Both the position numbers and the translations under genes were made by a program. A stretch of 64,000 nucleotides of DNA from Marsupella aquatica (lineage: Eukaryota; Plantae; Marchantiophyta). The DNA lies in NCBI GenBank assembly GCA_973895155.1, contig OZ316895.1, positions 9,164,184 through 9,228,183 on the forward strand. The letters are read 5' to 3'. The notes beneath the pieces are model-generated. The model was not told the DNA's origin, did not search any database, and saw only the letters and a program-made list of their open reading frames with translations. Positions 8,863 to 62,359 of the stretch are shown in pieces (position 1 is the first letter of the stretch; each line of letters begins with the position of its first letter).

Positions 8863-8880
8863 TGGCGCCGCTGCCGGGGA
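8863..8880 (+). promoter_or_regulatory. Primer-binding site complementary to tRNA-Asp 3' end (Athila-type)
   Basis: TGGCGCCGCTGCCGGGGA, one mismatch to TGGCGCCGTTGCCGGGGA; starts 20 nt after the LTR end. Confidence 0.8.
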
Positions 8881-38364: not shown

Positions 38365-40927
38365 ACACACATTTGGGTTGTTTCCACTTACCGCACAATA
38401 TTCCAAATTTATTTCCCACCTCTTGGTCGCTGAAAAGTAGCAGAAACTTTTATTGCAAATTTCTAAAAAGCGTCGACCAGGCACTTGACCACGTCCACAA
38501 CAACCACCAGAAACCCATACAAACAATGTTAACGAACTTTCAACTTCTTGTCAAAAAGTTAACAACACTAAGGAAAAAGGACGAGAATAACATGAAAATT
38601 CCCCAATAGGGGGAGTTTTTCTAACTACAAACCTAAACAAGGCTATAAGAGACCATTCCAAGGACAAAACCAACAATAGAGTCAACCAAATCAAACACAA
38701 GATAGTCAACCATACACTAGACAATTATCTGCAAAATGCAGAATGAGTAATCATTCAGATACTAATAATTGTAGAATCCTTAAATATCCTAGGGATCTTT
38801 ATACCAAAGGTTCCTCTAAGAAAAAACATTATGGAATGATCCAAGCTAGGAAAACCCCCATGGAACTTTTATGGAATCTTATGATCTATTCCACAATCTT
38901 GCTGATCAACCAGCAAACCTTGAGACGCACAAGTTAGTCACTCAGAAGTCACTCACATTACCAACTTTAGAACATAGTGCGAGTATTATTTACAGTGACA
39001 CTACACACTCTATACTTAGAGAAAAGATGCTTTTTCAAAACATCACTCTTTCTCATACATCTATAATGACCATCCATGGTCATAGTCAAATAAAAGAAGA
39101 ATATGGACCAGTCTCCTTGAGATTACCTCAAGGCACCAAAATCTATATAGTTTTTGATATATATGCCCTTAAGGACTAGACAATATACAACATCTGAGTT
39201 ACATTATTGAGGTCTTCCTCCAAAGACAAACTTCAATCAACATAGAAGAGAGAAATTAGAATGAATTCATACGGATTTTTTTGAAGGGATTGTTGTTGGA
39301 GAAGCTTCCTAAAACAAGGAGAGCAGTTAGAAATCTTTGAGGATTGAACAAACATCTTACCTCCAAAGACGATGAAACCATCATCCAGACCAATTGAGGA
39401 CCTGTCCACAAAGAATAAGAAAGACAAAGGAGCAATTGAACACGAAAGAAAAAATAAAAATCAATTGGGATTGAATGAACTCGAGCAGATTGAAACTATG
39501 ACTTCGGACTTCGCGCATCACACAATAGATCTGAACAACCACATCCAAACTTTGAAACAAGGCAGCAAAAATGTCGGGCAAACATTGACCTAAAACAACA
39601 ATTGCAAACCCTCTTTAAAATCACTTGTGTTCATCCATTGTCACCTACATACATTTTTACAAATACAACACCTACGCCTTACCTCCCCATGAGAGCTTTG
39701 GCAAGCTATCTAAACACGTTTCAACCATCAAAAGTTGATGGCACTTCTGAAAGCACGTCAAAAGTGGCTTAACCACCACGTACAAGACTTCACGTCAATG
39801 TCATCTATAACAATGAGTTAGTTAGAATAACTTCAACTCTTATTTTGAAGTGCGGAGAGCCAATTACTGATGTTGATCTCTTGAAAACACCCTCTCCATA
39901 TTCCACTCATTAAACATCATACTTGCAACCCAATATTGCAACATGAAATTTGTGCAATACTCTGAATTAATTTCCCATCTCTTGGTTGTTGAAAAACAAC
40001 AAGAACTCATATTGCAAAATTCTAAAAAGCGCCTACCAAAAACTTTACCTATCCCACAACAACCATTAGAAACCCATACAAACACTATTAATGAACATCT
40101 TGTCAAGGCATTAACGACCCTAAAGGACAAGGAAATTCCCACAATAGAAGGAGTTTATTTAACAATAGACCTAGACAAGGTCATAGGAGACCATTCCAAG
40201 AATGAAACCAACGACGGTTTTGTGAAAGATTTGGCATGATAGGTTGGTCAAACTATGCTAAGAAAGATTATACAACATTCTCAAGGGATACCACCCAATA
40301 TTTGTCATATTCCCACGCATTCACCATGCCCATCATGCTCTAGAGGCCAACTAATAAAAAAGTCTTTCATATCCAAATCAACAATACAAATATCTTGAGT
40401 TCATTCTTTTATTTCATACAAGTTGATATCTATGGACCGTTTAACCCACCCAATGGACAATTTAGATATTTTATGGTATTTAATAGATGAATCAATCAAG
40501 TGGTTGAATGTTACCTTACTCTCCATGAAACTTAGCTATACAATGCATGTATATTAGCCCGAATGTTGTGCATTAAAGCCCAATTTCTTGAGCACCCTAT
40601 CAAGACTCTGCATATAGATAATGGAGGGTTTACATCGTGATAGCAAACAACAAAACAATTCTTGTTATGAGGAAAAAAATTCCTATTACAAGCAAAATCC
40701 AAAATCCAAAATCCAAAAATGTGCTATTAAAAATGATATTTTCCAAAATATTTTAAAATATGATGTTTTTTTGCTAGCGCCAGGTGCTACTATTACTAGC
40801 TCCGGGCGCTACCCAAAAATATTGACAAAACAAAAAATATAATTTTGCTGTTACCAATAACTTTTATTGTTTTGCTGTTTGTTGTCGCGATGCTTATACC
40901 CTAGATAATGCAAGTAAATTCACTTCT
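38365..40927 (+). pseudogene. Two decayed plus-strand Bianca-like copia gag/PR/INT fragments
   Basis: SIIYSDTTHSILREK (PR), MKFVQYSELISHLLVVEKQQELILQNSKKR (gag), DIYGPFNPPNGQFRYFM and KTLHIDN (INT), homologous to copia A/B. Confidence 0.7.
40623..40901 (-). mobile_element. MITE 4 of the Mutator-like family
   Basis: GGAGGGTTTAC...GCTTATACCC; perfect 8-bp TSD TAGATAAT; palindromes at 40775 and 40797. Confidence 0.8.
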
Positions 40928-42647
40928 TGTTAACATACTAGTTAAGTCCTAACCTAACCATGACTAGGAGCATATATTGTACCCCTACCATTACATATGT
41001 AACACCACGTACAGGGAGAAGTTATTGGTAGCTGGAGTTTTCATACAACTTGTTATCATCACGCTACCAGCTTTGAGCAAGGCTATGGAAGATTGATCCT
41101 GGAAATTGGAAGCACTACCTCATAAAGAGATACGAGAAGCCAAAGATCAGATTAATCTCTGAGATTGAAGGAGAAGGAGAAAGATGAATCTGAATTGCGG
41201 CATCTCATAAAGACCAAAGGAAGTCCAAGCGATCAACCATAGGACTCAGGACGGAAGAAAAGGAACCCAATTAAAGCAATCCCAAGGCAAATCACTATGG
41301 GAGAATTAAATTTAAGAAAGAAAAAAAGATCAAGAGAATGAGGATCTAACATTCGTTCTTAGTCCAGCGCAAAGAAGAGAAAGAAGAGCAATTGCTCTCA
41401 CAAAATTTCACTTAGAAGAAATTAGAAATCCAAAGCATAACCAGATTTAGCGAGGCGCAACAGAAAGAAGAACAAACATGGCAGCCAGAACCCGATGCAC
41501 ATATTAAAAGCAATTCACAAGGAACGTGGACCACAATAAGGAAATAGAAACGACGACTTGATAGGAAGACTATTTAAAGAAGAAATAAAAGAGAAATCCA
41601 AACAAAAATAGAAGTGATAAATCAATTATGTATTGTTGAGGACTCGATCCCTGGAGGATTAAGAAGACTCACCACAAAGAGAAATCAACAACATGAAGAG
41701 GGGTAGCAGAAAGAGCAAAGAACAATAGTAACATAAAAAAGGATCGATCGATAGCCAGCAAATGTTGATCTCGTAGAAGGCTAAATAGAAAGAGAGGAAG
41801 AAATCAGAAACAACAAAGATGAAATAGTCAGGCAGCCAGACAAAATGATTAGAGATCACAAAAATTAATCTTGCAAAAGGACCAAAAGAGACACAACGGC
41901 GCACTAAGACTTGGGAGAGAAGGCTTAAGTTGTGAGAGATTATATATTTGAGATTAATTTGTTGCTGTAGCAGAGATCATTGAGCAACTTGAACCCAAAA
42001 TCTCACAACATTGAATCAAAAAACGTCGAGGAAATGACGAGAAACTATCACTAAGTGCACAACTCTCCTTAAGTGCAAAATCTGTCAAAGCAATTTTGAC
42101 TACAAAGAAAAAGTCGCACTTAACCAAAAACACATATTTAAGTTCAAACCTCTGTAAGTGCACAACCTATCAAAGAAATTTCCAGATACAAAGAGAAAAG
42201 TGCACTTAACTAGGAAAACTTCACATAACTGAATTCTATCCAAAACTACAACCTGCAACAAAGACAGGTTTGTAGGAATGTAAATGCCAATAACCGTGTA
42301 TAGAGTCTTGAATGGTGTGTACATATAATTGTGCCGGGTGACCAATTGGTCCGGTCAACGGGTAAAGTCGGGTAGAGTCTAACACTCCCCCTTGGATATA
42401 TAGTGACTACTATGTAGACAACATAGACTATATCTATCATATCATGTTCATAGGAAATACATGGTATGAGTACAAGCAAGGTAGACTGCCTCGTTAAAAA
42501 ACCTTTATCAACTCTAGCTATGTAAAAACTCTACCAGTGTAGCAGAGAAAAAGTATGAGTGCTAAAGGAAAAAGAGTGCAGCCTAACAGTCCTCATCATA
42601 ATAAATGTCAATACTATATGAAGTTAGATGCTATAGTAAATCTAGCT

Positions 42648-44165
42648 TCAAGATCTGTCTTGAGAGTAAGTCGTCAGTAGTATCAATCGTGGTATAGCAG
42701 CAGCCTCCACAGTCATCATGCGTTGCACGCTCCGTAGTCCAATCGCCTGGCGGTGTCGGTGATGAACGGCTGGCGAAAGTGATTTGGTGAAGAGATCCGC
42801 ACAGTTGTCTGCACTTGAAATCTGCAAAATGTTGATCTCTGTTCCATGTAACTCATGGGTGTAGAAAAACTTCAGAGCTATGTGCTTCACTCGATCGTCT
42901 TTGATGAATCCTTTCGTGATCTGCTGTATACATGTTGCGTTATCCTCAAAGATGTTAGTAGGCTTCGTTAGTGTTGGAAGGCCGCATTTGGTGTTGATGT
43001 GATTTATAAAAGATTGTAACCAAACGGCTTCACGACTAGCATCATGTAGAGCTAAAATCTCTGAGTGGTTCGATGAGGTTGCTGTTAGGGTTTGTTTCAC
43101 GCCTTTCCAGGAAAAAGCGGTACCCCCTATAGTAAAAGCATATCCGGTTTGGGATTTGGCGGTGTCAGTGTCGGAAAGATATCCGACATCCGCATATCCT
43201 GTGAGTTCATGGTTTGCACCAAATGGGTAAAATAACCCGGTATCAATGGTGCCATGCAGGTACCTAAATATGTGCTTAACTCCATTCCAGTGTTTGGCTG
43301 TGGGACTGGCACTGTGCCTAGCTAGTAGGTTAACTGCAAATGCAATGTCTGGTCGGGTCTGATTTGCTAAATACATTAATGCTCATATCGCAGAAGGATA
43401 CGGAGTTTCTGGTCCTAATATTGGTTCATGTTCTTCGCGCTTGCGAAAAATGTCAGTATTGTTTTCTAATGAACGTACCACCATTGGTGATGTCAATGAG
43501 TGTGCTAGGTTCATATTGAACTATTTTAGGATCTTTTCAGTTTGTGTTGTTTGATGGAGCATCATGCCAGTAGGTAAGATCTCCAATTGTAAGCCTAAGC
43601 AAAAGTTTGTATGTCCAAGGTCTTTCATCTCAAATGTTGATTTAAGATGAATAATAGTATCTTCTGTAATGTGGGGTGTCCCAAATATGTTTAAGTCATC
43701 GACATAAATAGAAACGATGACATATTCGTCATCCACATGTTTAATAAATAAACATTGGGTAATTGCATCATGGGAAAAACCCATGGCAATCATTTCATCA
43801 GTGAATCTTTGATACCATACTCTGCCACTTTGTTTCAGGCCATATAATGCCTTCAACACGCGGATAGCTAGTCCACGGCGAGTATTCCGTACGGTTGACA
43901 CAGGGGTGTCATTGTGATGAGTTATATGTGTAGATGACACATGAGGTGTAACTTGAGATAATTGTTTTATAATCTTATGTAAATATGGAATATGCAATGT
44001 AGCGCCTTGAGCTAAAGCTCGGCGATGTTGCTCCAACTCGGGAGGTGATCGCATGTATAGACAAGTGTCTAAAGTTCCATATAGGTATGCGGTCGCAACA
44101 TCTAGTTGTCGCATCTGAAGTTTATGGAAAATGGCAAATCCGACAAGGTATCGGAATGTTGTGTT
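42648..44165 (-). pseudogene. Copia B RT/RNase H portion
   Basis: MRQLDVATAYLYG, KALYGLKQSGRVW, SIYVDDLN, TRPDIAFAVNLL, GYADVGY, FEDNATC, ADLFTKSL. Confidence 0.92.
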
Positions 44166-44884
44166 GGGTATAGCAGTGGAGACAGGAAACAGGAAACAAT
44201 TTTCCTGTTACCAGGTAATTTCTCCTGGTAACAGGAAATTGTTATTGTAAAGGTGTACTATTTGGCAAATTTTTTCAAAAATTCACGTAAGGAACAACCA
44301 CATACTTAAGCTAAAAATATTCCTACTGGCATAAGACACGACGTCAGATATAAGGGAAAAGTGTGGTCACAGTTGCTCGGAGAGGTTCCAATCTATTGTC
44401 ACTTGCTCAGATTATAGATAAAAACGGGTTGTCATTTAATTCACTGCTGTTTATATACAACAACATTTCTAAACAGTCCACTTTTAAATGCTTCATTTAG
44501 TTCATATACTTCATTAGTGTGGTTAAAAAAAGGCTAACCATAATACCCATGGAGGAATGGAGTAAGCTCAGGCGGGACCCACCACAAATCCAGTTGTGGA
44601 TTGAATTATGTTATCAGAAACATAGGGGTCTGTCAGGCAGAGTGTGAAACTAGCGCCAGGCGCTAACAAAGGATTAAGTACGTAGAATAATGGGACGATA
44701 ATAAAAGCTTATGGAACCATCCAATGGCACTAACCACAAAAAACAAAATTTTATAAATAAGTTATTGACCAGCGCCCGACGCTAACCAAAACCACATAAA
44801 AACTAAAGTAATATCCGTTGACTAAAGACAAAACAACATAGTATCCGTTATGGAATACGACAGTTAAGGATAAATCGAGTCCCT

Positions 44885-47800
44885 CTATAAACCATTTGCG
44901 TTGTGCCTCTCCAACACAAGTCTGACTTCTCCAACTGTCAAAATCGGCTGGCTACACAAGGTAGACTTCTCTACATGAAACTTGAAGACATTTATGAACA
45001 CCCAGTACAAATGTTTACAGGGCATATACGGCTTGCCGCGGGAATGACGACGGAAGAAATCCTCACAGGAACAAGTAGGGAAGATGCACATTTGGACAAA
45101 GTAAGTGTTTGGCGATCGAAGGTTCTCGTGAGTCCGTATTCTGAATTGTTTCCCATAAGCAATTCCACTAATCACATCCCACTCTCCATCTAGAGTCATA
45201 GCTTCTTTTCGAGCCGACTCCATTCGTTTACTATGAGCCACAGTTAGATTAGAGCGAGGTCTAGAGTTCCTCCCATTCCTGCTACGAAGGCGCACGTTGG
45301 GCTCCGCAAAATTGATTTTCTCTGGAAATGTGTTAACATTGATTCTCAAGTCAAATGCAAATGGTGCAGTTCGAGTTTGAGAGGGCGCAGCTGTTTGGAC
45401 CATAGAGACTCCCTGCGCTTGAAGGTACTCTATCTCGCCAGGCGAAAGTTTTGTTCCTTTCACAACTGGCAGGATGTCCGGCACAGGAGGAAGGCGTTCA
45501 ACACCACGACGCGGGCGGCTCTTGTAGCATGTGCTGTTTGGGCAGAACCATATCATTTCGGCAATGGGAGTTCCTCTAAAAATGCGATGTCCGCTGACAA
45601 CAATGCCAACAACATCGGCAGCAGAATGGAACCCTATTTCCTTGACACGATTTTGACACTCATCTCTGTCAGAATTTCCATGCAAGGTCCCATTACACTG
45701 TGGCCCTGCCCCATATTTGGCCGTCCGTCTCAAATGCCAGCTTCCTCTTGGAACGTCCATTTCCAATGGAGCTGATTCTGTCGGCAAATGTTGAACCACA
45801 GTGGGGGCACTGCGTGGTTGTTGAGATGATGTTGTTTCCCTCGTGGCTTCAAGGGTGTTCGCAAGGGAATCGCTTTCACTTGTTGAAGTGTCACTCCCGC
45901 AGAGGTCTACTACAGGATCTACTACATTGGCGGGAATGGAAGTGAACTCAGTCTTGTTGAGATTCTTCCGTTTGAATCCTCAAGTATTTGGGGTAGTGAT
46001 GAGAATGGTGTCATGCCGATGGGAGTCTTGTGGCGAGACAATCCCAGTTGCAAGTCCCTTCCTCTTAACCAATTTGGTGATAATATCTCCATTCAGAGGA
46101 GAATTCCTACCCAGATCAAAATCGGCAGAGTTGGAAAGAATCATGTTAGTGGCTTCTTCGAATAACTTGGTGAACCTGCTTGCCGAACGGAATGCCAATT
46201 CCCAGATAGTTGGCCCCTTCCCTCTATTGAGTCCTTTCCGATATGCACTGTAACCTGCAACTTGAGATATAGCCCAATTTTGATCAACTTCGCATGCTTC
46301 AAAGAGGCCCACCATTTTTTTGGTTGCCCATGCTTTCATTGAAGCGTGCCTTGACTCAGAACCTGTACAGTTTGGAATGAGGGCACCTTCTTCTGCGCTT
46401 TTGCTCTGCAATGAAGTGGATCCAGACCAACTTTAGTCAATTTGTTTAAGCAGCGCCAGGCGCTAGCAATGTATATAATATACATTAATGTAATGTTGGT
46501 ATTATCAAGTGTTCATAAGTCATGAATGTGGCAAAGTTCTCTGTACAGTTTAAAGCAGCGCCAGGCGCTAGCATTGTGTATGATGTAATAATATAATGTT
46601 GGCATCTGTACAGTTAAAAGCGGCGCCAGGTGCTAGTAAAAAACATGGCAAAGTGACTATTGTAAGCATTGATAAAACTTACCACGCGAATGAAATTCCC
46701 CCACTGACGCCATCGAACGACCCACCATGATATCCAACTCTGCAACATCATCAATTTTCCTGGAACACAGTTGCCTGCTTGCCACCATAACACAATCTCC
46801 CTAGAAACTCGGTACGCAGCAACGAATGATGGAGCATTTTGCAATTTCTCCCACAGTCTTAGATGTTCAGGTTGCCTACCCTCGAGTACTCCCTTTGTGG
46901 AATGTCGATGGAAAGACTGGTAAAAGTGGAATGCATCGGAATGTTCACGTTCAGGGTCTGGGTGACCCCCAAAAAACACATTACGAACGGCAATCCATCC
47001 AGACTGAGCATTGTCGGCCATAAAACCTTGAATGGTAACCTCATGTAACCCATTTTCCTTACAAACCTCTATCATAATTCTCCATGCCTTCTCAAAGGAC
47101 TCTGTGTCTTCAGCTTTTAGTTCGCATGTGAATATTGTACAAAGAGCTTGAAAGTTGTGATCGTAAACGTGTGCGCTAAAAGTAAACCAGTCGGTTGTCA
47201 CTCGCTTCATGACATCAAAACTCACCCAAGCCCCTTCCAGTCTTCCGCCAGGTTGCATCTGACGTAAAAGATCTACACCAGATCCATGACCCTTGACTGA
47301 CATTTTGAATATGTGGGGACGATCTACTAAACAACCCTGACCCGGAAGAAGATACCTTTGGAGAAAAGAAATATTATTTGACCTTTGCATTCGAGCTAGG
47401 AAATCTAACTCACCACGACCAGCCTGGTCCATTCGAACGCTACGACAAAGGGACGCAAATTTCTGAGGAGTAGATAGAACCATGAGAGACTTCCAAATTT
47501 CGGTTTCTTCAATATCTACGATGTCGTCAACGTTCTCGCAAAGAGCTTTCACAAGCGAACCAGTCGCCGAATTCAAAATCCCAGCCGGTTTCGCAAGAGG
47601 ATTGGCTTCGTGATTTCTTTTTATTAAGTCCTCGGCCATCTTTTCAGCACTCCTGGAGAAAACTTTTCTACTCGGATGATTATGTTCACCTATATGTACC
47701 ACGAGCCGAGACATGTGACTATAGGTTTCTGTATCAAGTAGGACCTGTGGATACATATAGAACAAGCGAGCAGGGCAAGAGTCCACACAAAAAGGAATCT

Positions 47801-48704
47801 TTTCACAGTAGTGACATACTATACCACCCTCTTCAATGAGCGAACCCACCACATGCTGGCCACTAAGCTTAGGGGTACCAGCCCACGCTTTAGAATTGCA
47901 TCTCTTCTTTCGCAAAAAATATTCACAAGACTTGTTCCTGCACTCGACGAACCCAGTACAACTGACTTTACCAAACTCCCAGTGTTTTTTTGGTTGCACG
48001 TTTGCGGTCGTCGGAAAAATCCTGGTCCAAATGTAACAATCTTTGGCACGGTCCATGTCACGAAGTCTAGATCCTTTGGACTGCATTCCCACAATGGGAG
48101 GCAATTCAAATACAATATTTCCGTTGTACTTGTTTGGCAAACAAGGAACTTGATCGTGTCGAAAGTCCCCTACCGAGATAAATCTTGACAATTCACTATG
48201 GCCTGTGGCCTTGAGTAAGGCGTCCATTGCACTCCGCCGGTAAACCTTCTGGACATCTCCAGAAGTGGCCACCGGTTCACTCTTAAGGCAACTAGAGCTT
48301 GGAGCTTTGTGCTTCTCAGGAGGATTGGGCGCAACTTCCTCATCTTCACTCTCAGATATTTCAACAACCTGGGGCGGAATGTCCTGAACAACCGATTGAA
48401 GAGGGGTAGGTCTGACATGAAGCGTGTAACAAAGTCCTACATTCATGTGCCAGAAACATATTCCGTCATCCACATCAAATGCCGCAGCTGGTTCATGTCC
48501 TCCACCCGATGACTCCTCAGGAACAATCGACAGAATGTCATTGATTCTCGAATCGAATCTCCCGCACAGATAGTTCTCGCTTACTTGCCTGTAAGTATCA
48601 AAAACCTGCACGGGAACTTTGACGACTTCCCGGGTACAAGCACGTGTAATAACAATTGAGCGCGACATTGTAGATGAAAGAAGTTTAGGCGAGAAGTAAT
48701 TCAT
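44885..48704 (-). pseudogene. MULE-type DDE transposase with GCM/WRKY-like zinc domain and C-terminal SWIM finger; 2 exons, one nonsense codon
   Basis: Exons 48704-46683 and 46405-44885 (GTAAGT...TTGCAG intron, phase 0); TGA at 45980-45982 (likely from CGA). Motifs KVSCTGFVEC..CHYC..C..HIGEHNHP; VSFDVMKR; FMADNAQSGWIAVRNVF; SDAFH; GSESRHASMK; CSCEDF..PCKH. Confidence 0.85.
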
Positions 48705-49594
48705 GGAATAGCCCAATCCCAACCGTATTCCTTGTGCTTATAACACCCCTTCAAGGACCACCGGCCGTTGAAAGAGACGTTTCAATACGACATAGAACAC
48801 GCACAACTTTGCGTCTGTTGAAATCATAAATGATACATTTGTCGTTTTTGCCCGTCAAGTGCGGGTGTCAGGAATATTTATTACATGAATACGACTAGAT
48901 AGTAGTCTATACAAGTGCTTCCATTTCATTAGCGCCGGGCGCTACCTAAAAGCCATTGGAATAACAATGACATAATTTGAAAAGTATTCTGACTAGCGCC
49001 TGGCGCTAGCATAATTACACACAAAATATTGATGCAAATACAGTAAATTTTCACTAGCGCCAGGCGCTAGTATTGATACAATAAACTTAATCTCATAATA
49101 TTAAGTAAAGTTTGGTTACTACAGGTGAAACAGGTACATTTAGGAGTTTGTTGACAATATCTATTTCTTAAAAAGAACATAAATCAAATTATTCAAATGG
49201 CTAGCGCCGGGCGCTAGCATTTGTTCACCAATAAGTTCTTCAATTTGGTAGTCTCTTATTCGTTAGCGCCCGGCGCTGGCATTGCATGTTTGTCTGCAAG
49301 GTGCTGAGACAACAATAACTTTTAACGGTAACTAATATTCAACATGATTATCACGCAAACATTTTAGCGTGGTTCACATTAATACTTATCGCAATTTCTA
49401 AGTTGTCGCTTTCCGTCACTGATAAATTAAATTGAATCTTGTCGTTTGTAATGAGTAACGTCTCTCCAACCGATTACAAAGAGGGGAATAGCGCTCATTG
49501 ATCGGATATAATACGGACGCAACTGTTAATATGGTACGGAGAACTGGTAATTAGTCGTGAGGATTCCGTTCGTACACCTTTCATCGTAAAGACG

Positions 49595-52500
49595 ATGGAT
49601 GCAATCCCCTCCTTGTCGAGGGGGTATAGTGTGGTTGGGGATCAGGATCGTGGGTATTGCGAGTCTTCTGAGTCTTCATTCTCTGGTTTAGTGTATACGC
49701 GTCGAGTAACGAGGTCCACCGCATCGCTTGTTCCAATCTCAAGTATTTCGTTTGCCAAACCAGCGAGAGAGAAGATGGAGAATCTTGACACATTTGCGAT
49801 TCAAGATGTTTCATTTTCCGAGACGGATCTTATTTCGAAACATGTCATGTCGTTTGGGAAGGATTTCAGAGGGTTTGACAAAGAGCCTCCACGAATTCCA
49901 CTATGTCGATTGGTGCATATGGAGGTTGTCCGAACTCTACAAAAAGACAGTTCTTCCATCGACAAGCTAAAAGACTCTTTCTGTAGCATGGGATACAATT
50001 CTTTGATTGGAATGAGGTTTTACGTTCAGCCTACCAATGCTGAGGGAGCGCTTCTCACCTGTACTCAAGAAATTTGTGAGAGTTGGGATCCAATATGGAC
50101 ATCTGAGAACGAGAAATTTGAGGAAGAATGTGCTGCCGACCCAGATTTTCTAGTTTTGAAGGACAGAATGTTCTCAGTTTTTGACGAGAACCATAGGCTT
50201 TACTCGTGGACTCTTGTCACTCAAGAGAGTCCCAAAAACCCAAAGTACTACCCACGTGTGCTTTGTACTGTTTTCAATGGCGACAAGGGTTTGCTGATAG
50301 AAATCGAAGCGGCTATGCACACCGTTAACCAGTAAGATACCCTTTTGTGCAAAACTCCGTGAGTCATTATGAATTGTTCATTCTTTCTAGCATAACTTTC
50401 CGAGGCCATGTTTTGCGAGCGCCCGGCGCTGCTTATATGTTCTCATTTCGTTCTTTTATTTCAGGCTAGGACAAGCAGTTGTGGAACCCTCCTGGATCCT
50501 AGATGCCGATCGAATTAAGCGGATCTTGATGCACGACCTGGAGTACTATAATAAGCTCATCGACCCTGCAAATTACAAGAAGTTTGAGCAGATCAGGGTG
50601 AAGACGCGAAAAGGATCCTGGTACACAAAGAAGATGCCTCAGGAGGCTCTTTTGTACATTCTATGTCAGGATAAGATTAAGTCGTATTCGAACCAGTTCA
50701 AGATTGACATGGAGTCCGCTGCGGCCCTCGGTACCCCTTGGTCGGTCGAGGAGGTTTCCAAAAGGCATGCCGTTATGATGAAGGAAGCAACCAAGGAATG
50801 GGCAGTTAAGACCTCGAAAATCACTCCTTTGTTGAGTCCAGAGTTTGAGGACTTTCTATCTACGTGCGTAGAGATGTATGCTGTCACGGAGAGGAATAAG
50901 CGAGAGAAGAAGCCAGATACCGTGTTGTGTACCATGGACCGGGCCAGGCTTTTTACAGCTGTTTTGGCTCTTGACGCCAAGCTACAAAGTACTTTGCTTG
51001 TAGCACATTGCAATCCGGAGCTCCGGAGACAATTCTTCCATCCGAATAGCATCAATGATGATCCAGTCAAACAGTGGTGTCACACTTGGATTACATGGAA
51101 TAATGTAGAAGGGATTGCGGTGGGGATGTTGCAATGTGCTCTACGAGAGGTCCAACAAACCATTCCCGTGAATCGCTTACAAGATTGGGCATGTGAATCA
51201 TTCGAATCTCTCATTGAAATAGTTACGAATGATTTTAGGAAATATGGTGACTCTGTCAAGGGTAAGTTTTTAATACAATGTGGCCCTCGAAGTATCCTGA
51301 CAAAGAGGATTACTCTTTGAAGAACCAGAAGCGAGCAAAACGGTATCTCTACCGTTTTTACATCCACATGGAGGCTACCAATCCTGATTACTTCTGGGCG
51401 TATCCCGCCGCCTTCCTCAAGTGGACTGTCTTACCGGAGAGTAATTCTTTAGTTGAATTGTATTCTATGTATCCTACTGAGGGAATTTTCCCAGCAAGAC
51501 CTTTGAGTGAATGGGAGAGAACCCATTGTCCATGGTACCTGGATACAAATAGAGGGGACTCGCCCTTTGATCATAGAGAAAAGGATGCTTTCCATAAGCT
51601 ATCTAAGTCCCAGATCCCAGTCAACGTTGTTTCTAACATGAAGCAGGGGCTTTCGGATGATGTGGATAAATCCACAACAGAATTGCAAACAATATGCAAG
51701 ACAACAATTGTTCATGTTGACCGAAGCAGGAAGCCTCGCGCCAAAGCAAAAGCAGATACTACGGCCCCAAGTGAATCAACAAGATTTGGGAAAAACCGTA
51801 AGTATAATTTGTTTCCTTTGGTTAGCGCCCGGCGCTGCTATGGCAGTCAATATCTGTCACATTGTTAGCGCTCGGCGCTGCTATGGGAGTCCAAATCTGT
51901 TACATTGTTAGTGCCAGGCGCTGTTATGAGAGTCAACGTTTTAGAAACTGAATTGTATTTATTACTCGGAAAGATGTATATTTAAGGCCAAGTCTTATGA
52001 TAGTTTGGCCAGCGCTGGGCGTCAGCATTGTCGTTGTCTCTTTATTGACGGATATCACGTTGACATCCATTTGAACAGGAAGAAAGTCGGACGCCGTGGT
52101 GAGCGGAGATACAAAGATAGATGCCATCCCAGAGGCTTCAGAAGCCAATACCGGAGCACCATCCGATCCAATTACTCCCACCGACAAAGGGAAGGCGATC
52201 GCGCCGGTGGATGCTACCAGTACAAGGAAGAAGAGAAAAAGGACCATTGAAGGTGGATCTTCTTCTCGAGAAAGTGCTGCTGCTGTAGGTCTTCAACGCG
52301 AAGTCGGGGACTTCAAGAGTAGACTTTCAAGGCATTGCCTTGTTGAATCTAGCATCTCAAAATTCTACGACTCAACATTTAACAAAGGGGAGAAGCCTGA
52401 CTGGGTGAATGGTGTAGAGAAGTGGGGAAAGGATCTCATGAAGTCTGGCTTTCGAGAGAAGGGCATTGTGCGTGGTGGAAAGGAGAGATCGTTTGGGGTC

Positions 52501-53438
52501 CACGCGGGTTTCATCTACCTTCCAACACGACTTAAACCATCTCTGCTAGACAGAAAAGTTCCTAAATGGAATGTCCCTGACCACACTTTGTCCACATCTT
52601 TCTTTCGTGGAATGGACCCATTTTTATCTGATGACGGAATGCTGGCCATTTTACATAATGGGGAATACGATCCGATGTCTCAGGTTATATCGGCTTATCA
52701 AGATTCAAAGAAGTTTCATTGCATCTCGTCACACAATGTTGTCATGTCAGTTCCAATGTACGTGCCGAAGACTGATCGACAGGTAAATTTCTCATCGTGA
52801 CATCTGGTTTGCCGTTAAAAAATTGTCTACAAATGCATCCATTGACATACCTTGCTTGGGTTATATTACAGATCTTCACGCTGAGGCTGGACGTCTTCTC
52901 CCGAGTGTCTGAAAAAGGGAAGGTGCCAAAATACTCGAGGTTTAGACCTCTGTCTGCCACCGAAGATCCCTCAATAACAAATTTAATTGGACTTCCCTCT
53001 CTCAAAGTTGATCCAACACCTGAGATGGAATTTGCTGGAAATGCCCGATTGTCTGTTGGATTCATGCAATCTGTGATTGAGCTCATCACTCATCCTAGGG
53101 ATATTTTCATGGATTGGACAGTGGGGTCGGACAGCTCTTTTGTAGTTGGAGACTATTCTGGGAGGTTTGTAATTGGAGTGGAGAATAGGAAAGATTTCGT
53201 TGAGACTGGTTCCAAGGTGTTCTTAGATCTACTTTCTCCAAAGGAGGTCGAAACTTTGCCACCCCCAATTCAGCCACCCGAAAAGAAAAAGTGGGACAAG
53301 CTCCGTTCTGTACTCAATTTTGACTCTGACAATGAGTCAAGTGGTGGTACAGCAGACGAAGATGAGGATGGCACACCTGAGGGGAAGGGTCAGGAACAAT
53401 CCGCTAGCCAGAGTGACAGCGATGACTCTTCCGAGTAA
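49595..53438 (+). pseudogene. ParB/Srx-like domain + beta-class N6A/N4C DNA-methyltransferase-like fold protein, ~1110 aa, 4 exons, 1-bp frameshift
   Basis: Exons 49595-50331, 50465-51797, 52079-52782, 52872-53438 with frame-preserving GT-AG introns; one T missing in the run at ~51267-51271. RIPLCRL..VRTL..FCSMGY..FSVFDENHRL (ParB-like); GFIYLPTRL..PKWN..FLSDDGMLAILH and ELITHPRDIFMDWTVGSDSS..SGRFVIGVE (MTase-like). Confidence 0.72.
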
Positions 53439-53481
53439 TGTTCTGAAACTCGTAAGCTTACTTCTCCTTTCCAGTTCCTTC

Positions 53482-53835
53482 ATGCCTTTGTGATATCCAT
53501 TCATACAATCGGTTGACGAACTTCTGTTCTCACCCAGGTCCAAATGGAATACGAGAAGACGCTTCAAACTCAGAAGAAAGGTAGCTCGTTTTGAAATTGT
53601 CACTCCGGAGAAACCATTTGTGTTACCCTCTTACGCTGAGAATGCTGCAAGAATGGAAGACAATCAGAGGACTCTTTGTTGGGAAAACAAAGGTCTCCGG
53701 CTACGAAGAGGAGTTGATAGAAAATTTGTCCGAAATCCTTATGTAGACGACGTTTGTAGGAGCAAGTATGTAGATGACGAGGCGGTCTCTACCGAGAGGT
53801 CACAGAGCTCCGAATCGGAATCGTCCGATTCTTAA
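53482..53835 (+). pseudogene. Possible small accessory ORF (~117 codons, one early TGA) in the Mutator-like element
   Basis: ATG at 53482 is in frame with 53620-53835; basic N-terminus, NPYVDD/KYVDDEA repeat, Ser/acidic tail; followed by palindromes. Confidence 0.35.
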
Positions 53836-54251
53836 AGAGTTTTTTCGGCTTACATTTTACCAGCGCCGGGCGCTGTTATCTTAATCCATTTATTTATCAT
53901 ATTAGATATGATTTGTTTACATTACATTGATAATAAAATGGATTAAATTCCTCATTTCCCTTACTAGCACCGGGCGCTCCCCAAACGTCTATTTTTCTAC
54001 TTGCAAATTTTGAATCCTCCGTCCGTTCCTTGGCCCCGCATATTTTGTCGCTACCGGAACAGTCGTCTCTTTCTCAACGGTCCTTTTTGCGTTGAACCTT
54101 TCTGTGATACGTTTTTTCTGATCTCCGAACCTAAACTCTCCATTGGGTCACTCTTGCAAGTTATTTCAAACACAACCTCTCTCGAAGTCGAGTCATTTCA
54201 ACACCACCGGTCTTGTCATTACCCTCGATTGCGTTTATCAGTGCCCACCAG

Positions 54252-54722
54252 ATGGAGAAGAAGGAGATCATGTCTTTGGAGGAGATGCTTGCCTTCTTTG
54301 CTCCTTCCAGAGTTCGACCAGACGAGAGTCACTTTAGCTCCTTCGAGTCCATTCATGGTGACACATCCAGCGAGACCTCGACCTTCCGGAATCATTTTTC
54401 TCTTCCTTATGATGAGGCAATTAGTCTTGGGGAGAGGAACTTACCTTGGATTAACGACCGGGACACTCCGCTCGCAGTGGTTGATCATTTTTTGTTTCAT
54501 TCTCTCGTTCCTGCTGATGGTATTCAGCCTATTGAGCTACGAGTACAAGAGCGACTGGGACGTGTTGACTTCCTAGATACAAATGTTCCAGACCCCGGGA
54601 ATCAGAGTCCGGAGTTTTGGCGCCCCTCGTCTTCTTATGTGCGTCTCAAGGGTCTAGGTTTCAAGCAAAACCACAGACATGCTAGGGCGGGCATCGACGA
54701 CGACTGCCAATCGCAGAGCTAA
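54252..54722 (+). CDS. Possible small accessory ORF (156 aa) of unknown function in the Mutator-like element
   Basis: MEKKEIMSLEEMLAFF... open frame lying between palindrome clusters at 53861/53965 and 54789. Confidence 0.35.
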   Translation: MEKKEIMSLEEMLAFFAPSRVRPDESHFSSFESIHGDTSSETSTFRNHFSLPYDEAISLGERNLPWINDRDTPLAVVDHFLFHSLVPADGIQPIELRVQERLGRVDFLDTNVPDPGNQSPEFWRPSSSYVRLKGLGFKQNHRHARAGIDDDCQSQS

Positions 54723-55736
54723 AGTTAATCACGACGGAGATGGTTTTAGTGACACAAGCTTCAGTGGCCATAGGCTTTCCATTTAAGCTAGCGCCGAGCG
54801 CTGCTTTTGTTCGTCTTGGACCGTGGGATTTCTTCTATGGGTGATTCTAAGTTCATGTATTTCCGGCTCCATCTTTGGCCCATTTTGGATCAGCGGCCCT
54901 GTTATGTGCGGCTCAGGCTGAGATAAAGCACATACGGGCCAGGGCAGGCTACATTTAAGATAGCTAGATTTTAGCTAGCGCCGAGCGCTACTTATGTTCA
55001 TGTTATGCCGTGGGTTGATTTGAAGATGATCTGCGGATGGTGTAATACCGGTTATATGTTTTGACCAATTTTGGAATTAAGGAATGCACTTTTGGATCGG
55101 CTCTCTTGTTCTTTCATGGTCATTCATTGATTCCTAGATTTGAGCTAGCGCCGAGCGCTGCCTATGGTCATTGTGTTCTGTGTTTAGACGTCGAGTTCTT
55201 GAGGTCTGACATTTAATGTAGCGCCCATCGCTGAAAATATTCAACGTCTGCCATTGCCTCTCTTTGTTGGAAATGCTTCAAATTGAGTTTCCTATGTTCA
55301 CTTCTCGATTGATGTGACGGACAATCTCTTCCAGCATACTAGCGCTGGGCGCTGCTAATATCCGCATGTTTTGGCAACGCCTTTTTCTAATGGTCGTTAA
55401 GTTTATTGTTCTCTTCTCGATTGACGTTACGTAGAATCTCCATCTTAGTCGTTATTTTATGAATACCTAAATTTTTGCCCTTCCCTGCCGGCATACTATC
55501 GTTGTGCAATGGCCATCACCAGTTTTTGGCAACACCTTTATTCTAATGGCCCCTACTTTCCTTGACAATTGGATGGTGGTATTGAAAACGACTGAACATG
55601 GGGTTTATTGATGGTGTTTTTTTAACGTCTTGACCAAATAATGGAGCTCAATCCCATGTTCTTTTTTCCATTTCTCCTGGTAACAGTAACTGTTTGCTGT
55701 TACTGTTTCCTGGTTCCTGTCGTTTGTAAATACCCC

Positions 55737-58700
55737 GTTGTGCTATCCATAACCGATGAGTAAGTTTCATCATAACAAATTCCCTGTTGTTGGGTAAATC
55801 CTTTCCCTACCAGACGTGCTTTGTAGCGTACAACCTGGCCTTTATCATTTCTTTTGCGGACGAAGGTCCACTTGTAGCCAATGAGGTATATGTCTTGCGG
55901 TGTTGGCTCAACTGGGCCAAAAGTGTGTCTGCTTAGTAGGGAATCTAATTCTCCGTTGATAGCTTTTTGCCATTCAAGCCAATCTGGTCTATTTTGGCAT
56001 TCTAAGATGGAGAGTGGTTCAGGTGTATCATCATTGATATGGGTTGTCACCATTAATGCAAAAGTATCATCTATTGAAGTAGTATTTCTATCCCACATAG
56101 CACCTGTGTGTGCGTAGTGGATAGAGATCTCTTCATGAGTTGTAGAGTCAGTATGATCGACATCAGGTGAAGGAGGGATAGATGAACCACGCCTTCTTGG
56201 TTGTTTATCTTTTGATCCCAAGGATCTGCCACGTTTGGCACGAGGCTGGGGTGTACTTGCTGGCTCACTTGATAATTCGATGCGAGCGGATGCTCTCGCA
56301 GCTGGAATATGTGAGCGGGTAACTTGTGATGTATCGACAAAAGCGTCGGGAAGTTCTTCCACAATCTTGTGGAGTTGCAAAATTGGCTGAACTTCTTTCT
56401 CCCCCTGATTGGTTCTAAGGTCTTGCCAAAATGGCGAATGTCTTTCCCACTCCAAAGGTGGTTGTGGGTGTTCAGGGGTTATTAATGATGGATAAACATG
56501 TTCATCAAAATGGCAATCTAGAAATCTGGATTTAAAAATGTCACCCGTTGTAGGCTCCATATATCTGATGATGGACGGTGAGTCGAATCCGATATATATC
56601 TCCAACTGTCGTTGGGGTCCCATCTTGGTTTGTTTGGGTGGAGTAATGGGGACCATTACTTGACATCCAAATGAACAAAGATGGGATAGTTCGGGTTTGA
56701 TAATGTTAGCAATTTGGTATGGGCTATAGGTATTAAAAGCTGATGGGTGGTATTGAATTAATGCATTAGCCTATAATATGGCATGTCCCCATGCTGATAC
56801 GAGGAGTTTCGACTACATTAGTAGCGGGCGTGCAATTAGCTGAAGGTGTTTAATGACAGCTTCAGCTAGTCCATTTTGGAAATGCACATGGGGTACAGGA
56901 TATTGTACGTCAATGCCAAGTGATGTACAAAAGTCGTCAAATATTTTAGATGTGAATTCTCTTGCATTGTCCACCCTTGGCCTCATTCACAATTGGAGGA
57001 CCCAAAAGGAACGTCACACTCAAAAATGACCATAGTTTATTATGCTTTAGGACATCATTTGTAAGGTGTAATGAGATGATATGCAAAATTTGATGTGCTA
57101 TACTTAATAAACATCCTGTAGGTTGGTAACATTAATTAAACTATCTAGTATTTGAGACTTTGAAGCTTTCCTTATATGTCCTTCAAAGATCGATAAAAGG
57201 ACTTGTCACGCAACGAGTCACATCATTTCAGGACTCGAAAGGACTCTAAAACTTGCATTTTAGACAATGAAATTTTACCAAGGCATGCATACTAATAGAA
57301 TAATCTTATATTTTAAAACTCAAATATTGACACACACTAAACCTTTATGTACAGGACAAAAATAATCAATAATTTTGGCTTATTTAGGGCCATCAATAAT
57401 AGGATCCCTTAAAAAAGTTAAAAACTTGATTTATCTACATGGTGAGGTAGGTTACACCATGTAAAATAGTCTTGTGAAAAAATTAGACTTAAATGTCTTG
57501 AGATAAAATCATGATGAAGCTTTTTGCATGTTACGAAAGTCATTTTTCACTAAAAAAACATGTTTTTGAGTCCTGAAAGTGGTTCCTGTGAGGTACACCC
57601 AATTGTAAATGAGGCCCCTTAGTGTCTTAATGGGGTGATCTGGGAATTGTGCCTTCACGCACAATATTTGCGCCAGGATGCGAGGCATAACCATGTTCCT
57701 CGTTGAAAGTAGGGTCACATTTGACCATTTAGTTGATGCGTCGATTAATACCATAAAGTAGCGGAAAGGTCCGCTCGGTGGGTTAATTGGCCCGCAAACG
57801 TCCGCATGTATGATTTCCAAGAATTTTGGTATCTTGGTTGGCAATTTTGATACCGTGGGCCTTGTTATTAATTTGCCGCGTGAGCATGCAGTGCATGGGG
57901 TGCTAGCTAGAATGTGGCGTATATTGGTTGGAATGCCTCTTGAATTCTTAATGATTTTTCTTAGCATGGATTGGCCGGGGTGGCCGAGGCATGCATGCCA
58001 AAGCGCGGGCAATTCGCTTGGTTGTGCATTGTTATGCAAACATTCAATTTGAGTTACATAAAACCCGCATGGGTACGAGAAAAGTGTTTCTTTAATGATT
58101 TTCCCCGTAGGGGTATTTTCAACCAAGTGGATTATTTCCTGGTCTCTTGTATCGCTTGTCTGGACGTGGAGTCCATTTGCTCGTATATCTCTAAAATTGA
58201 GGAGATTACGGGTTGCATTCAGGGCGAAGATAGCAGATTCTATGTGGATTTCTGTACCCTACGGGAGTCTAATAGAAGCTGGGCCGAAGGCCTCTTCTAT
58301 TTGGCTAGGACCATTGATAGTGGTCAGTGATCTACGTGAGGGTGTTATCTTGTAGAAAATGTGTCTATCCCGGAGGATAGTATGCGTAGTCGCACTATCT
58401 ATAATGCATGTGCTAGGGCTATTTAAGTCTGGGGTTGTGGATCTGCCCGCCACTAAATGTGCCTCGGGTTGCACAGGTGTATCTGGAAAGTCTTGAAATA
58501 GGTCGTTGGACTCCATAAACGACCCGTGGGTCTCACGGGGTGGTGCCCTAGAGGTTTGTCCATCCTTGAGGGACTATTGATATAGGTCTCTAAGGTGTTG
58601 CTGGATTCTGCAGTTTCTTGCTAGGTGGTTATCATGCCGCATTCATGGCATTTTGGGCGTTCCCGTTGTTATCGGGATTGTGACCAATCATTTCTTCGAT

Positions 58701-59470
58701 TGTTGTTATATGTTCTCCCACCGCCGCGTCCGCCAAGGGGCCGTCGGAAATTAAGTTGTGGGCGTTGGTTAAAGGTTGCCATTCCTGGTGCGCTTCATAC
58801 CCTACCTTGATGTGGAGGGTTCAGCGTTTTCTATATTATGGGTTTCACTCGGTGGTCCTGGGGTTAGTGTACCCGCAGGGCATTTTCTAGAGTTAACTAA
58901 AAGAAGCTCTTGGTTTTGTTCTGTTACTAGGAGGTGGGCGATGAGCTCTGAGTATTGCCCGAACTTCATGTTCCGGTACTGAGTTGATAGTAACATGTTA
59001 GAAGAGTGAAACGTGGACAAGGTCTTTTCTAGCAAGTCCTTGTCGGCGACTGGCTCGCCACAGAGTGTAAGGGTTGAAGTGATTCTGAATAGCTCACTAT
59101 TGTAGGTTGAAATGGATGTAAAATCCTGGACCCGTAGGTTTAGCCATTCTTGCCTGGCTCTAGATAGTTCGACCAATTTTTGATGGTCGAATCGGGTCTG
59201 AAGCGTTGTCCATAGTTCGTGAGGGGTTGAGAGATGCATGTATTGTCTTTGCAAGAACCTATGGATATGGCGTCTAAGAAATACTAGGGCCTTGGATTCA
59301 TTGGCTTTGGTTAACGGGTCTGGTTGGGGTTCGCCAGCTAGTATGGGTTGAGCGATCCCTATAGCGGGGAGTAAGGTTAAGGAGGTCAGGTTCTCGTTCA
59401 TGGACCACTCAACGTAATTGTTACCATCGATTTCTAAAGCTGGGAAAGTCAATTTCTCCAGGTTGGCCAT
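55737..59470 (-). pseudogene. Copia B gag-protease-integrase-RT N-terminal portion
   Basis: MANLEKLTFPALEIDGNNYVEW (Bianca-type gag), CIIDSATTHTIL (PR), LWHACLGHPG..CTAC, HADVCGP (INT), GYKWTFVRK..RYKARLVGKGF (RT). Confidence 0.92.
56979..57616. mobile_element. TIR non-autonomous element (PIF/Harbinger-like MITE), 638 bp
   Basis: TIRs GGCCTCATTCACAATTGG / CCAATTGTAAATGAGGCC; CCTT (or CTT) duplicated at the copia integrase KTLR/VDN site; AT-rich non-coding interior. Confidence 0.8.
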
Positions 59471-62359
59471 CGGGGTGGTGGCTATGTTCCTTTTAATGGT
59501 GATTGGGGCTTATGTTCTAGTAAGTATAGTAAAAATCGACAAAGCACATTTATGCGGCATGTAAAGTGGGACTGCGTGCAGAGAGCATGCAAATCTGGAA
59601 TTCAATTTTAGGGTTTGCACTTAGGATTTAGGTTTTCCTTGTTATTTGGTTAATTGCAAAGTTTCCTTTGTATTTGCTCTTTCCTTTGTTGAATTGTGCA
59701 GTAATGGAGTTTTGCAGTTTGTGCAATTATGGGTGATTATATACTCGTGCCCTGGTTAAGTGCACATGCAGCTTTGTAAAGTTAAGTTTTCTTGTTACGG
59801 TGTGCAGTTATGGAGGTTTTGTGGTTATTTGCATTTAGATGGTTAATTGCATAATTTTCTTTGTATGCAGAAATTTCTTTGATGGATTGTGCAGTTAGAG
59901 AGGGTTTTGGACTTAGCCACGTTTTCGCTGTTTTGTTGCATTTTTTTCGGTTTTTCTTCTTGGGGAGGTGCTCCGCGCGCGCCTCACGGCTTCACCTTCG
60001 CTTCGTGTCGAATTGGATCCCCCCAATCCACATCCTGCTTTTCTCGTCAACGGTGTTGTGCTCAGGCATGAATTCTTATCTCAATCATTCTCGAAAGTAA
60101 GTTGTGACAGCATCAACAGTTTTTGACTTCAGATTTAGATTTCTACTCGCTCTTTCTTCTCATTTCACAATGTCTTCTTCCCTCTGACTTGATCATTTTC
60201 CCTCTTTTCGATTCCACTCATTTATGCTGTCGATCGCGCTGTGTGACAGGGGGTTCAATTTCCTCTTCTCCTGATCAATTGCTGAATGTTCTCATTTTTG
60301 TATGCTTTCATTTTCCTTCGCTTCCTATATTCAATTTTCTTTTCGTTTCTCTCTTCGGCTTCACTGTAGGATCAATCTGTGCGATTCCATTTCGCCTTGA
60401 GGTGTTTTCTTCCTTAATTGTACCCTCGGATCAATCTCTTTGATCTTTTTATGTAGTTTCTTCTGCTTTCTAGTCGCTCTTTCTTTCAATCAGTGAATTG
60501 ACTTATTGCTGCCATTCTTCTTTGAATAAGTCCGAATCCCTTGCTGCTTTGTATGGCCTTTTGATTTCCTTTTCTTTGAATTTTCTTCTCTCTCCTTTGA
60601 AATCTGCCTACAATTATCGTGTAATTTTGATTTGATATTTCAGCCCTTCGGTCCTTATCATTCCTCGCCCGATTCTATGTGAGAGCTATCCACGTTTGAT
60701 TCAATTCTTCAACATTCAATTCAATCCTGGCCTTCTCCTAAAAAAAAAAATTGCTAGTGAAGAGCTTCGTGCTGATAATGTGTAGGAATGTAAATGCCAA
60801 TAACCGTGTATAGAGTCTTGAATGGTGTGTACATATAGTTGTGTCGGGTGACCGACTGGTTTGGTCAACGGGTAAAGTCGGGTAGAGTCTAACAAGATTT
60901 CATTTACAAATGAAACCTTGCACTTAACAAGGGTCTGCACTAAAAGTCATTTTAGAAAACATAAAATTCACTCTCATTTACAAATACCTAAACCTAAACA
61001 ACAACCTAAACCTAAACCTAGCTAGCCACATTTAGGGTTAACAAGAAGGAACCTTCCTTGAAATTTTGTTTTTCATTTATTAATGAAGCCACGAAAGACC
61101 CCATGGCAGGGGGACACCGCAAACAACACCAAAAGAACTAGAAGTAGTCGTGCCCCACATAAAGGACAGCCAGTGAAGCAAACCGTGTTTGCCAAAAATC
61201 GGCGACCAGTGCCAGCAACAAGCCGAGCATGCCATGCGCGACCAGAATTCAGGGGCCAATATCTAGCAAGGCGAACTACCAACTAAACTAAGCTCTCATA
61301 TGCCTGGGCCAGCAGCCAGAAACCAGGGGCCAATACTGAGCACGGCAGACTAATAGCTATAAAGTTATCACATATGTCCACGCTGACAGTCATGAGCCAA
61401 GGCATCAATAGACTACATCCATGAGGTCCAAAGATGGCCTCAGCCAGACGTGATCCACACCTGACGGCTATTCAGTCACACAACTCGCTCTTGATTAATA
61501 AGTTCTTTGACATGCATCATTCTGGTGCGACGCCTGCCCAATGGCAAGCTCACCTTAGATCTTAATAAATGAAAGCTTAAAAACCAAAAACGAAAAAGAC
61601 AAAAATCACACATTTTGATTTCTAGAAAGCGTACATAACTCACAACCATCATTAAACGAGACGCACAAAACTTGTCACCAGCATTAAACAAAATCATTTT
61701 ATCTTCTTGAATACATTATTACATACACTAGACAAAAACCTACCACCAGGCCTAACCCTAACTCTAAACCCCAGACCCCGCTCTAGACCTAACCCTAACC
61801 CTAGAACCATGGCATCAATAGAAAAACTAAACTTTCTCCCCTTAACCATTGAGGGGGAGAATTACCTATCATTGTCCCTAGATGGAAAGCAAATCTCATA
61901 TCCAAAGACATCCACGATACAATCACCAGTGACCAAGGGACCACAATACAGTAGAAAGCGAAAGCCTTAGTGTTCACATAACATCATTTAGTAGAACCCC
62001 TAAAACTTCAATACTTAAACAAAGAGAACCCTAAAAGCCTTTGGAAACAATTAAAGGATAGGTTTGACCATACCAAGACTATCCACCTCCCCAGAGCCCG
62101 ACATGATTGGGTCAACCTTAGAGTTCAGGACCACACCTCTATAGCAAACTACAACAACAAACTCTTTAGGATGATGTCATAGTTGGCCCTGTGCGGCCAG
62201 CTTGTAAATGATGAAGAGCAAATAGAGAAGACACTCTACGTTTCACTTCAATAACATGATATTGTCATCACAGTACAGGAACATGAAGTTCACCAAGTAC
62301 TCTGAACTCATAGTCCACATGTTACTCGCTGAGAGACATCAAGAGTTGCTATTGAAGAA

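Follow-up and report, generated by a model that had tools for sequence, protein, structure and literature searches.

The architecture of a transposon that carries both a ParB-like domain and a DNA methyltransferase (MTase) is already in print for algae (2025). Sola1-1_Ec32 of Ectocarpus encodes, opposite its transposase, a protein of 1104 amino acids (aa) with ParB-like and N4/N6-MTase parts, which is proposed, in the available passages of the 2025 paper, to represent a new kind of accessory protein that binds its own element (PMC12477816). Plavaka elements of Bostrychia, as far as the available text of the source describes them, carry a PF01555-SET gene (PAG2) and a ParB-2OG-oxygenase gene (PAG3) beside inverted-repeat arrays that are proposed as ParB targets (10.1101/2025.02.11.637652). 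The eukaryotic ParB-fused MTases treated in the available passages of PMC4738411 are ParB-HTH fusions and belong to another MTase group, and DN4MT1 of Marchantia is described in the part of its source at hand as keeping TSPPY (10.1101/2021.02.12.428880). A search of the literature, with few subscription papers within reach, found no report of a ParB-MTase transposon gene in a land plant. The window, which is the whole stretch of 64,000 nucleotides analysed here (contig OZ316895.1), holds a Mutator-like element of 11,570 bp (44166-55735) that carries a transposase gene and a divergent second gene, here called the accessory gene. What is new is the Mutator-like host element, which likely comes from a liverwort, the loss of the catalytic MTase motif throughout the family and a defined candidate target, the palindrome AGCGCCNGGCGCT.

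An original prediction made from the sequence alone had described the accessory gene as four exons that join in frame, with one 1-bp frameshift, into about 1110 aa. The gene model agrees with this, since four exons are joined across GT-AG introns of 133, 281 and 89 nt into 1113 aa once a single base is restored near 51266, and the motifs named at the time lie where they had been placed (IPLCRL at 49895, FDENHRL at 50180, GFIYLPTRL at 52507 and ELITHPRD...IGVE at 53079-53183). Also as described, the gene diverges from the transposase, whose start is at 48668 on the minus strand. Its parts are as follows.

49595..50331, plus strand: accessory exon 1; its candidate ParB/Srx-like domain spans about 49895-50331 and reads DENHR here but DGNHR in other copies
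50465..51797, plus strand: accessory exon 2, the central region; 1-bp deletion near 51266 private to this copy
51798..52078, plus strand: accessory intron 2; its three palindromes lie in a tandem unit of 43 bp
52079..52782, plus strand: accessory exon 3, a linker followed by the first half of the MTase fold, where YLPT (52516-52527) replaces DPPY
52872..53434, plus strand: accessory exon 4, the half that binds S-adenosylmethionine (SAM), with motif I at 53112-53132 and motif II at 53172-53183; acidic tail
53538..53835, plus strand: likely accessory exon 5, 99 codons, behind an in-frame GT-AG intron (53435-53537); synonymous variants in other copies

Splicing of the gene is inferred from the sequence. 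The intron between exons 3 and 4 is supported because two Calypogeia proteins, P0014 and P0020, read straight across the junction, and because many exon-3 homologs called from unspliced DNA stop at the same position. The four exons of the prediction stand, its gene end does not: unspliced, exon 4 reads on to a stop at 53438, and the stop at 53436 probably lies within a fourth intron (53435-53537), which would give five exons and 1211 aa. Both variants listed in 53538-53835 are synonymous in the exon-5 frame, a loose contig end of 30 bases at 53717 differs, compared by eye, by four synonymous and two conservative codon changes, and all four exon-4 homologs that were found end in Glu, as read-through of a GA|GTAA donor would give. 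The likely exon 5 ends (53716-53800, plus strand) in a twice-repeated acidic motif, YVDD(EA), which is kept in another copy and may be a short protein-binding motif.

According to models and profile alignments, the C-terminal part is a beta-class amino-methyltransferase fold in which motif IV precedes motif I, as had been foreseen. Exon 4 matches the Pfam N6_N4_Mtase profile with E=0.00096 and 19.6 bits, which falls short of the curated cut-off of 26.7 bits, and DpnA in the PDB with E=0.0066, and the homologs P0002 and P0004 pass the cut-off of Pfam PF01555. The Atlas model of homolog P0020 (pLDDT 0.50) superimposes over residues 1-260 with TM 0.66-0.70, and N6_N4_Mtase is named in 10/10 rows; its second structural match is a cluster of phage ParB-N + N6_N4_Mtase proteins. 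The permuted Rossmann fold with the catalytic strand ahead of the SAM-binding motif, a feature of PF01555, is present. Global hhalign against seven phage MTases gives 97% probability and places YLPT on DIPY; these seven were picked by a tblastn match to the C-terminal half only, so that the alignment is not independent there, and the local alignment stops short of the YLPT motif. A fold of exon 4 built from a 5-row alignment reached pLDDT 46, and a sequence search of the PDB with the exon-3 homolog profile returned no MTase match.

The canonical catalytic motif [DNSH]PP[YFW] is described as required for amino-MTases in the available passages of PMC4738411, and replacement of SPPY by APPA abolishes the activity of bdelloid N4CMT, as reported in the part of PMC8885841 at hand. 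In the present family the pattern DLIFMALPTG reads directly onto DLxFxDPPY. The motif is covered in 35 of the 36 alignment rows: its first position is Y in 11, A in 11, F in 7, C in 3, S in 2 and R in 1, and thus D or N in none, while the fourth is T in 25 and N in 5 and never aromatic. The replaced motif is itself kept, with P in 34 and T in 25 of the 35 rows. The SAM-binding motif I (DWxxGxG, of the DxxxGxG type) is intact in all six homologs that span the region and the motif II acid in all seven. The accessory protein is therefore predicted as a likely SAM-binding pseudo-methyltransferase. A loss of DPPY/SPPY limited to this copy was considered and rejected since the aromatic residue is missing in 35/35 family rows, and the earlier suspicion of a catalytically dead MTase is borne out for the whole family. 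The DNA-marking role proposed alongside it is not, as D/SxPY is restored in no relative, and the MTase of this branch probably writes neither N4-methylcytosine (4mC) nor N6-methyladenine (6mA).

The N-terminal domain, which had been assigned to ParB/Srx, is probably of ParB type given the algal precedent. ParB/Srx N-terminal domains have a nucleotide-binding motif of the GxxR type. DGNHR is found in P0001 and in most other copies, and the Atlas features of the exon-1 domain score 0.93 to a cluster with ParB_N on 11% of its members; these two observations favour the assignment, and the comparisons by sequence profile taken up below lend it no support. With a cluster in which 31% of the members carry DUF3723, the same features score 0.96, and no paper linking DUF3723 with ParB was found in the literature search; the 'PARB' of PMC7776561 is the name of a fungal clade and unrelated. 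A tblastn search with the domain gave no plasmid match and phage primase matches only at E 6-10, and a model from 2 rows (pLDDT 38) gave nothing meaningful with Foldseek and VIA-align (best Z 5.0). Searches of Pfam, PHROGs and NCBIfam found no sequence-specific DNA-binding domain in the central region.

The second component of the proposed system is the palindrome. With up to one mismatch allowed, AGCGCCNGGCGCT occurs 23 times in the window where 0.03 occurrences are expected, and none of 100 shuffles had more than one match; a chance origin is rejected on these numbers. The palindrome is 13-15 bp long and GC-rich with the core CCNGG. The element holds 19 of the matches, none of them in the 66% that was counted as coding, although copies made by tandem duplication are not independent, and the palindromes lie partly within tandem units of 43 to 187 bp. 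Two are found at the left, two in the transposase intron, five between the divergent starts, one in intron 1 and three in intron 2 of the accessory gene, two downstream of it and four at the right.

44652..55353: span of the AGCGCCNGGCGCT palindromes of the element (up to one mismatch), all non-coding, at 44652, 44771, 46452, 46557, 48931, 48995, 49056, 49203, 49265, 50418, 51824, 51867, 51910, 53862, 53966, 54790, 54977, 55147 and 55341
48669..49594: intergenic region between the two divergent starts, with 5 palindromes
24704-24988, 28866-29220, 31116-31443 and 40633-40887: relatives of about 350 bp that resemble miniature inverted-repeat transposable elements (MITEs), 67-73% alike

The MITE-like relative at 28866-29220 has both termini in common with the element. 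The remaining 4 of the 23 matches sit in two of these four relatives, and all four hold one or two palindromes when up to 3 mismatches of the 15-mer are allowed.

Other copies of the element were sought in public contigs of four runs, which carry three organism labels and come from three studies; the depth of a contig gives no copy number, and the variant calls rest on 40 of about 1110 variant rows. In each of the four runs, and so in three organisms, contigs cover the element across its 30 bins. Among the variants listed, 50187 A>G, which turns DENHR into DGNHR, makes up 96-100% of the depth in the three of the four runs that cover the site, 53131 A>G, which turns GSD into GSG, makes up all of it in 4/4 runs, and an extra T behind 51266 is present in 4/4 runs at 51-100%. 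Both reversions had been predicted; a third, from HPRD to HPGD, is less well documented, as PGD comes from a single loose contig end and from homologous proteins only. As judged from these comparisons, the frameshift and the readings DENHR and GSD arose by decay in this copy, which, with its frameshift and a stop in the transposase, is dead. A phmmer search with exon 3 found 35 homolog clusters at 25-66% identity, a span which implies long retention of the family. Identity to the nearest exon-1 homolog is 45% over the initial 80 residues and 68-85% across the domain. Five of the 30 homologs looked up have an organism name, in each case Calypogeia fissa, and these five paralogs lie on different contigs, which fits a multi-copy family. 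Two metagenome scans gave 47 and 303 pattern matches, none of them a confirmed relative. Synonymous changes account for 8 of the 26 listed coding variants against 22% expected, but these are mostly changes private to this copy and hence no test of selection. By contig coverage and homolog clusters the accessory gene is a standard part of a multi-copy element family present in three organisms, and the expectation that it is kept across copies and organisms has held.

The insertion splits the reverse transcriptase frame of a Copia element, and the frame is whole again once the element is taken out. The empty site is present in the public contigs, with joints of 44140/44157 to 55737 in three of the four runs, and loose contig ends at 44163 continue into the right flank. 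The boundaries and the genes of the element outside the accessory gene are given below.

44157..44165: left target-site duplication of 9 bp, which differs from the right copy at 2 positions, placed by empty-site joints and loose contig ends
44166..44250, plus strand: left end of the element; its terminal inverted repeat, GGGTAT, is short, as are its subterminal repeats
44885..46405, minus strand: transposase exon 2, with the third catalytic acid (GSESRH), the stop at codon 804 and a C-terminal SWIM-like zinc finger
46406..46682, minus strand: transposase intron, with 2 palindromes and a third with 2 mismatches at 46622
46683..48668, minus strand: transposase exon 1, with an N-terminal region rich in Cys, candidates for two catalytic Asp residues (VSFD, FMAD) and DAFH
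55670..55735, minus strand: right end of the element
55736..55744: right target-site duplication

The duplication can alternatively be read as 8 bp with one mismatch; a length of about 9 bp is characteristic of Mutator-like elements. The terminal inverted repeat is only 6 bp, the subterminal repeats are weakly alike and the long terminal inverted repeats of Mutator-like elements (MULEs) were not found. Long repeats of this kind are absent in non-TIR MULEs, and the short terminal repeat fits that type. The transposase consists of two exons on the minus strand with 1168 codons and one in-frame stop. A DDE transposase with C/DxxH and a SWIM finger is a feature of MULEs, and the motifs read by eye, presumably DDE-type, DxxH and SWIM-like, are taken to be of Mutator type; against Pfam the transposase gave no MULE match, and SWIM only at E=4.6. 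The assignment as Mutator-like thus rests on the length of the duplication and on these motifs. Other transposase copies have 6 extra bases, in frame, at 46168-46180. An open reading frame (ORF) of 156 codons at 54253-54722 (plus strand), downstream of the accessory gene, is possibly a third gene of the element; its best Pfam match is DUF5030 at E=0.003, and there is no convincing family match. Some other copies in the public contigs skip 53950/53984-54249.

A possible role for the accessory protein, put forward tentatively and with a little less than even confidence, is that it binds the palindromes and keeps the element active in the manner of VANC. The protein would bind DNA, as predicted for a likely ParB-type N-terminal domain joined to a likely non-catalytic amino-MTase fold, and as a dimer it would bind the AGCGCCNGGCGCT palindromes of its own element, thereby occupying the divergent promoter, the introns and the subterminal DNA. 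Host CG/CHG methylation would be kept off, or removed through host factors, as VANC does for VANDAL elements, the element would stay transcribed and mobile, and the protein could act in trans on the MITE-like derivatives that retain palindromes. Anti-silencing had been suggested in the original prediction, and it gains a candidate target from the palindrome array, which was not mentioned there. In favour of the proposal are the number of palindromes, their confinement to introns, intergenic and subterminal DNA, where VANC motifs lie as well, their retention in all four MITE-like relatives, the Bostrychia arrays beside ParB-type genes, the whole MTase fold with its replaced catalytic motif, and the divergence of the family. 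Several observations weigh against it. In all eight palindromes of the element that carry one mismatch, the change is C>T or G>A, as decay of methylcytosine would give, and because of this the sites were probably methylated at some time; outside the palindromes, the observed/expected ratio of CpG in the non-coding parts of the element (0.83) is only slightly higher than in the Copia flanks (0.69-0.75). The exon-1 domain has no ParB match in Pfam, PHROGs, NCBIfam or PDB sequences, and when a query of 2 sequences was compared by hhalign with 8 rows of phage ParB-N, the score was 11.4, with a shuffle mean of 10.5. Among 5827 candidates 794-2265 aa long, none proved to be a full-length homolog with both the N-terminal and the MTase part, which is a weak negative, and the fusion therefore rests on the splice model of the window. 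Finally, that MITEs without genes keep the palindromes fits a role in transposition as well as one in transcription.

Such a role is the basis of an unlikely alternative in which the palindrome-bound protein helps to build the transpososome by bridging or compacting the element and loading the transposase, with methylation left untouched. TnpA of CACTA elements and the DNA-binding partner of Harbinger are parallels, and ParB proteins bridge and spread on DNA. All four gene-less MITE-like relatives have palindromes within about 200 bp of their ends, and the terminal inverted repeat of the element has only 6 bp, both of which favour this reading; in the full element, however, the palindromes are internal, the nearest being about 490 and 380 bp from the ends, 13 of the 19 lie in the promoter region, in introns or just downstream of the gene, and the ends have short repeats of their own. 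The palindromes could also be bound by the transposase or a host factor while the accessory protein has a different task, for instance targeting insertion sites or serving as a protein-level decoy for the silencing machinery of the host. This is unlikely. In its favour, protein and palindrome are linked only by their common element and the central region offers no recognised DNA-binding domain; against it, ParB-type accessory genes and inverted-repeat arrays co-occur in an unrelated red-algal transposon superfamily, and the introns of both genes would be an odd place for a transposase to bind.

Two further readings make more of the MTase fold itself. It is quite unlikely that this land-plant transposon family has set up in the nucleus a system of the bacterial parS/ParB kind, in which a nucleotide-gated clamp would load at the palindromes, spread and carry along an MTase fold turned from writer into reader or shield of bases. 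An enzyme of altered chemistry, which would bind SAM and use a non-canonical xLPT(G) site to methylate RNA, protein or a DNA base in the palindrome, is an equally doubtful prospect. The intact motifs I and II and the conservation of the replaced motif would suit it, as would the core CCNGG, which resembles the targets of bacterial MTases (CCSGG is given as an N4C target in the available part of PMC8885841). The dependence of amino-MTases on [DNSH]PP[YFW] (PMC4738411, available passages), of which the aromatic residue occurs in no row, argues against it, and the spread of residues at the first position of the motif (Y, A, F, C, S and R) is what a structural position would show. That the accessory gene is a one-off captured, decaying fragment without function is scarcely credible. 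The frameshift and damaged motifs of this copy are what such a fragment would show, but the element is covered in full in 4/4 runs from three organisms, the lesions are absent from most other copies, and the 35 homolog clusters are divergent, with many ending at the same splice position; on these grounds a one-off capture is rejected.

The host of the insertion is a Copia element on the minus strand (42271-44165 and 55736-60894) that is cut within its reverse transcriptase; direct repeats of 114 bp at 42271 and 60781, 95% alike, are probably part of its long terminal repeats (LTRs). Elsewhere in the window, 4766-18798 is a Gypsy-type retroelement (ORFs 9074-15496) with near-identical direct repeats 10.7 kb apart, each of which has an ORF of 623 aa (5860-7731, 16599-18470) together with tandem units of 47 and 64 bp. 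These flanking repeats are very long, young, LTR-like and protein-coding. Two overlapping ORFs at 670-2522 (plus strand) look, by eye, like a transposase fragment of CACTA/EnSpm type.

The element would extend the ParB-MTase architecture to a Mutator-like family of a likely liverwort, and with its sharply defined candidate target the function is open to assays of binding and methylation in a liverwort that is easy to work with. Under the quite unlikely reading as a nuclear parS/ParB-like system, VANC would have an independently evolved counterpart, a second anti-silencing system that is sequence-specific and for which protein and target motif are both in hand. A motif-specific anti-silencer that evolution can program would also serve epigenome work as a tool. 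VANDAL elements of Arabidopsis are likewise Mutator-like elements with an extra gene, and their short motif is found in introns, intergenic and terminal non-coding DNA, often in tandem (PMC5735166, available passages), a layout that the present palindromes share. The VANC motifs are 8-9 bp and asymmetric, in contrast to the GC-rich palindrome of 13-15 bp described here, and binding and demethylation are proven for VANC (PMC5735166, available passages), whereas the present protein has a prokaryotic MTase fold and its role is predicted. No VANC family appeared among the Pfam matches, and no comparison aimed at VANC sequences was made.

The MTase half has counterparts in both phages and eukaryotes. 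Phage ParB-N + N6_N4_Mtase fusions such as Gp24 and Gp25 of AcaML1 share the predicted domain order and the beta-class MTase, but they are only about 430-510 aa long and keep an intact SPPY or DPPY, and the ParB-N profile aligns to exon 1 no better than to shuffles. In the Acidithiobacillus phage AcaML1 (L007:334-3149) two such genes are adjacent, one with SPPY and one with DPPY. Marchantia DN4MT1 (10.1101/2021.02.12.428880) and bdelloid N4CMT (PMC8885841) are, according to the available parts of the sources, further beta-class amino-MTase folds in eukaryotes; unlike the present family, which lacks SPPY and is transposon-borne here, they belong to the host, have kept SPPY intact and write 4mC.

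Compared by description and on the available parts of the sources, the algal elements come closest. The Bostrychia genes provide a transposon-borne PF01555 methylase and a ParB-like domain, of which the present gene has the MTase fold and a candidate ParB-type domain, and they have homologs on Mutator elements of Chondrus; PAG2 and PAG3, however, are two separate genes with SET and 2OG-oxygenase parts, whereas the present element has one gene, and the Bostrychia repeats form tandem arrays beside PAG3 while the present palindromes occur throughout the non-coding parts and also persist in MITEs. Ectocarpus Sola1-1_Ec32 shares with the present element a protein of about 1100 aa with an N4/N6 MTase part, placed opposite the transposase in a large DNA transposon; its ParB-like part has a candidate counterpart here. 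It differs in belonging to the Sola superfamily of a brown alga rather than to a Mutator-like element of a likely liverwort. Its protein is predicted to be an active 4mC or 6mA writer, in contrast to the replacement of the catalytic motif throughout the present family, and where the available passages of the Ectocarpus paper name no target motif, the present element has the palindrome as its candidate target.

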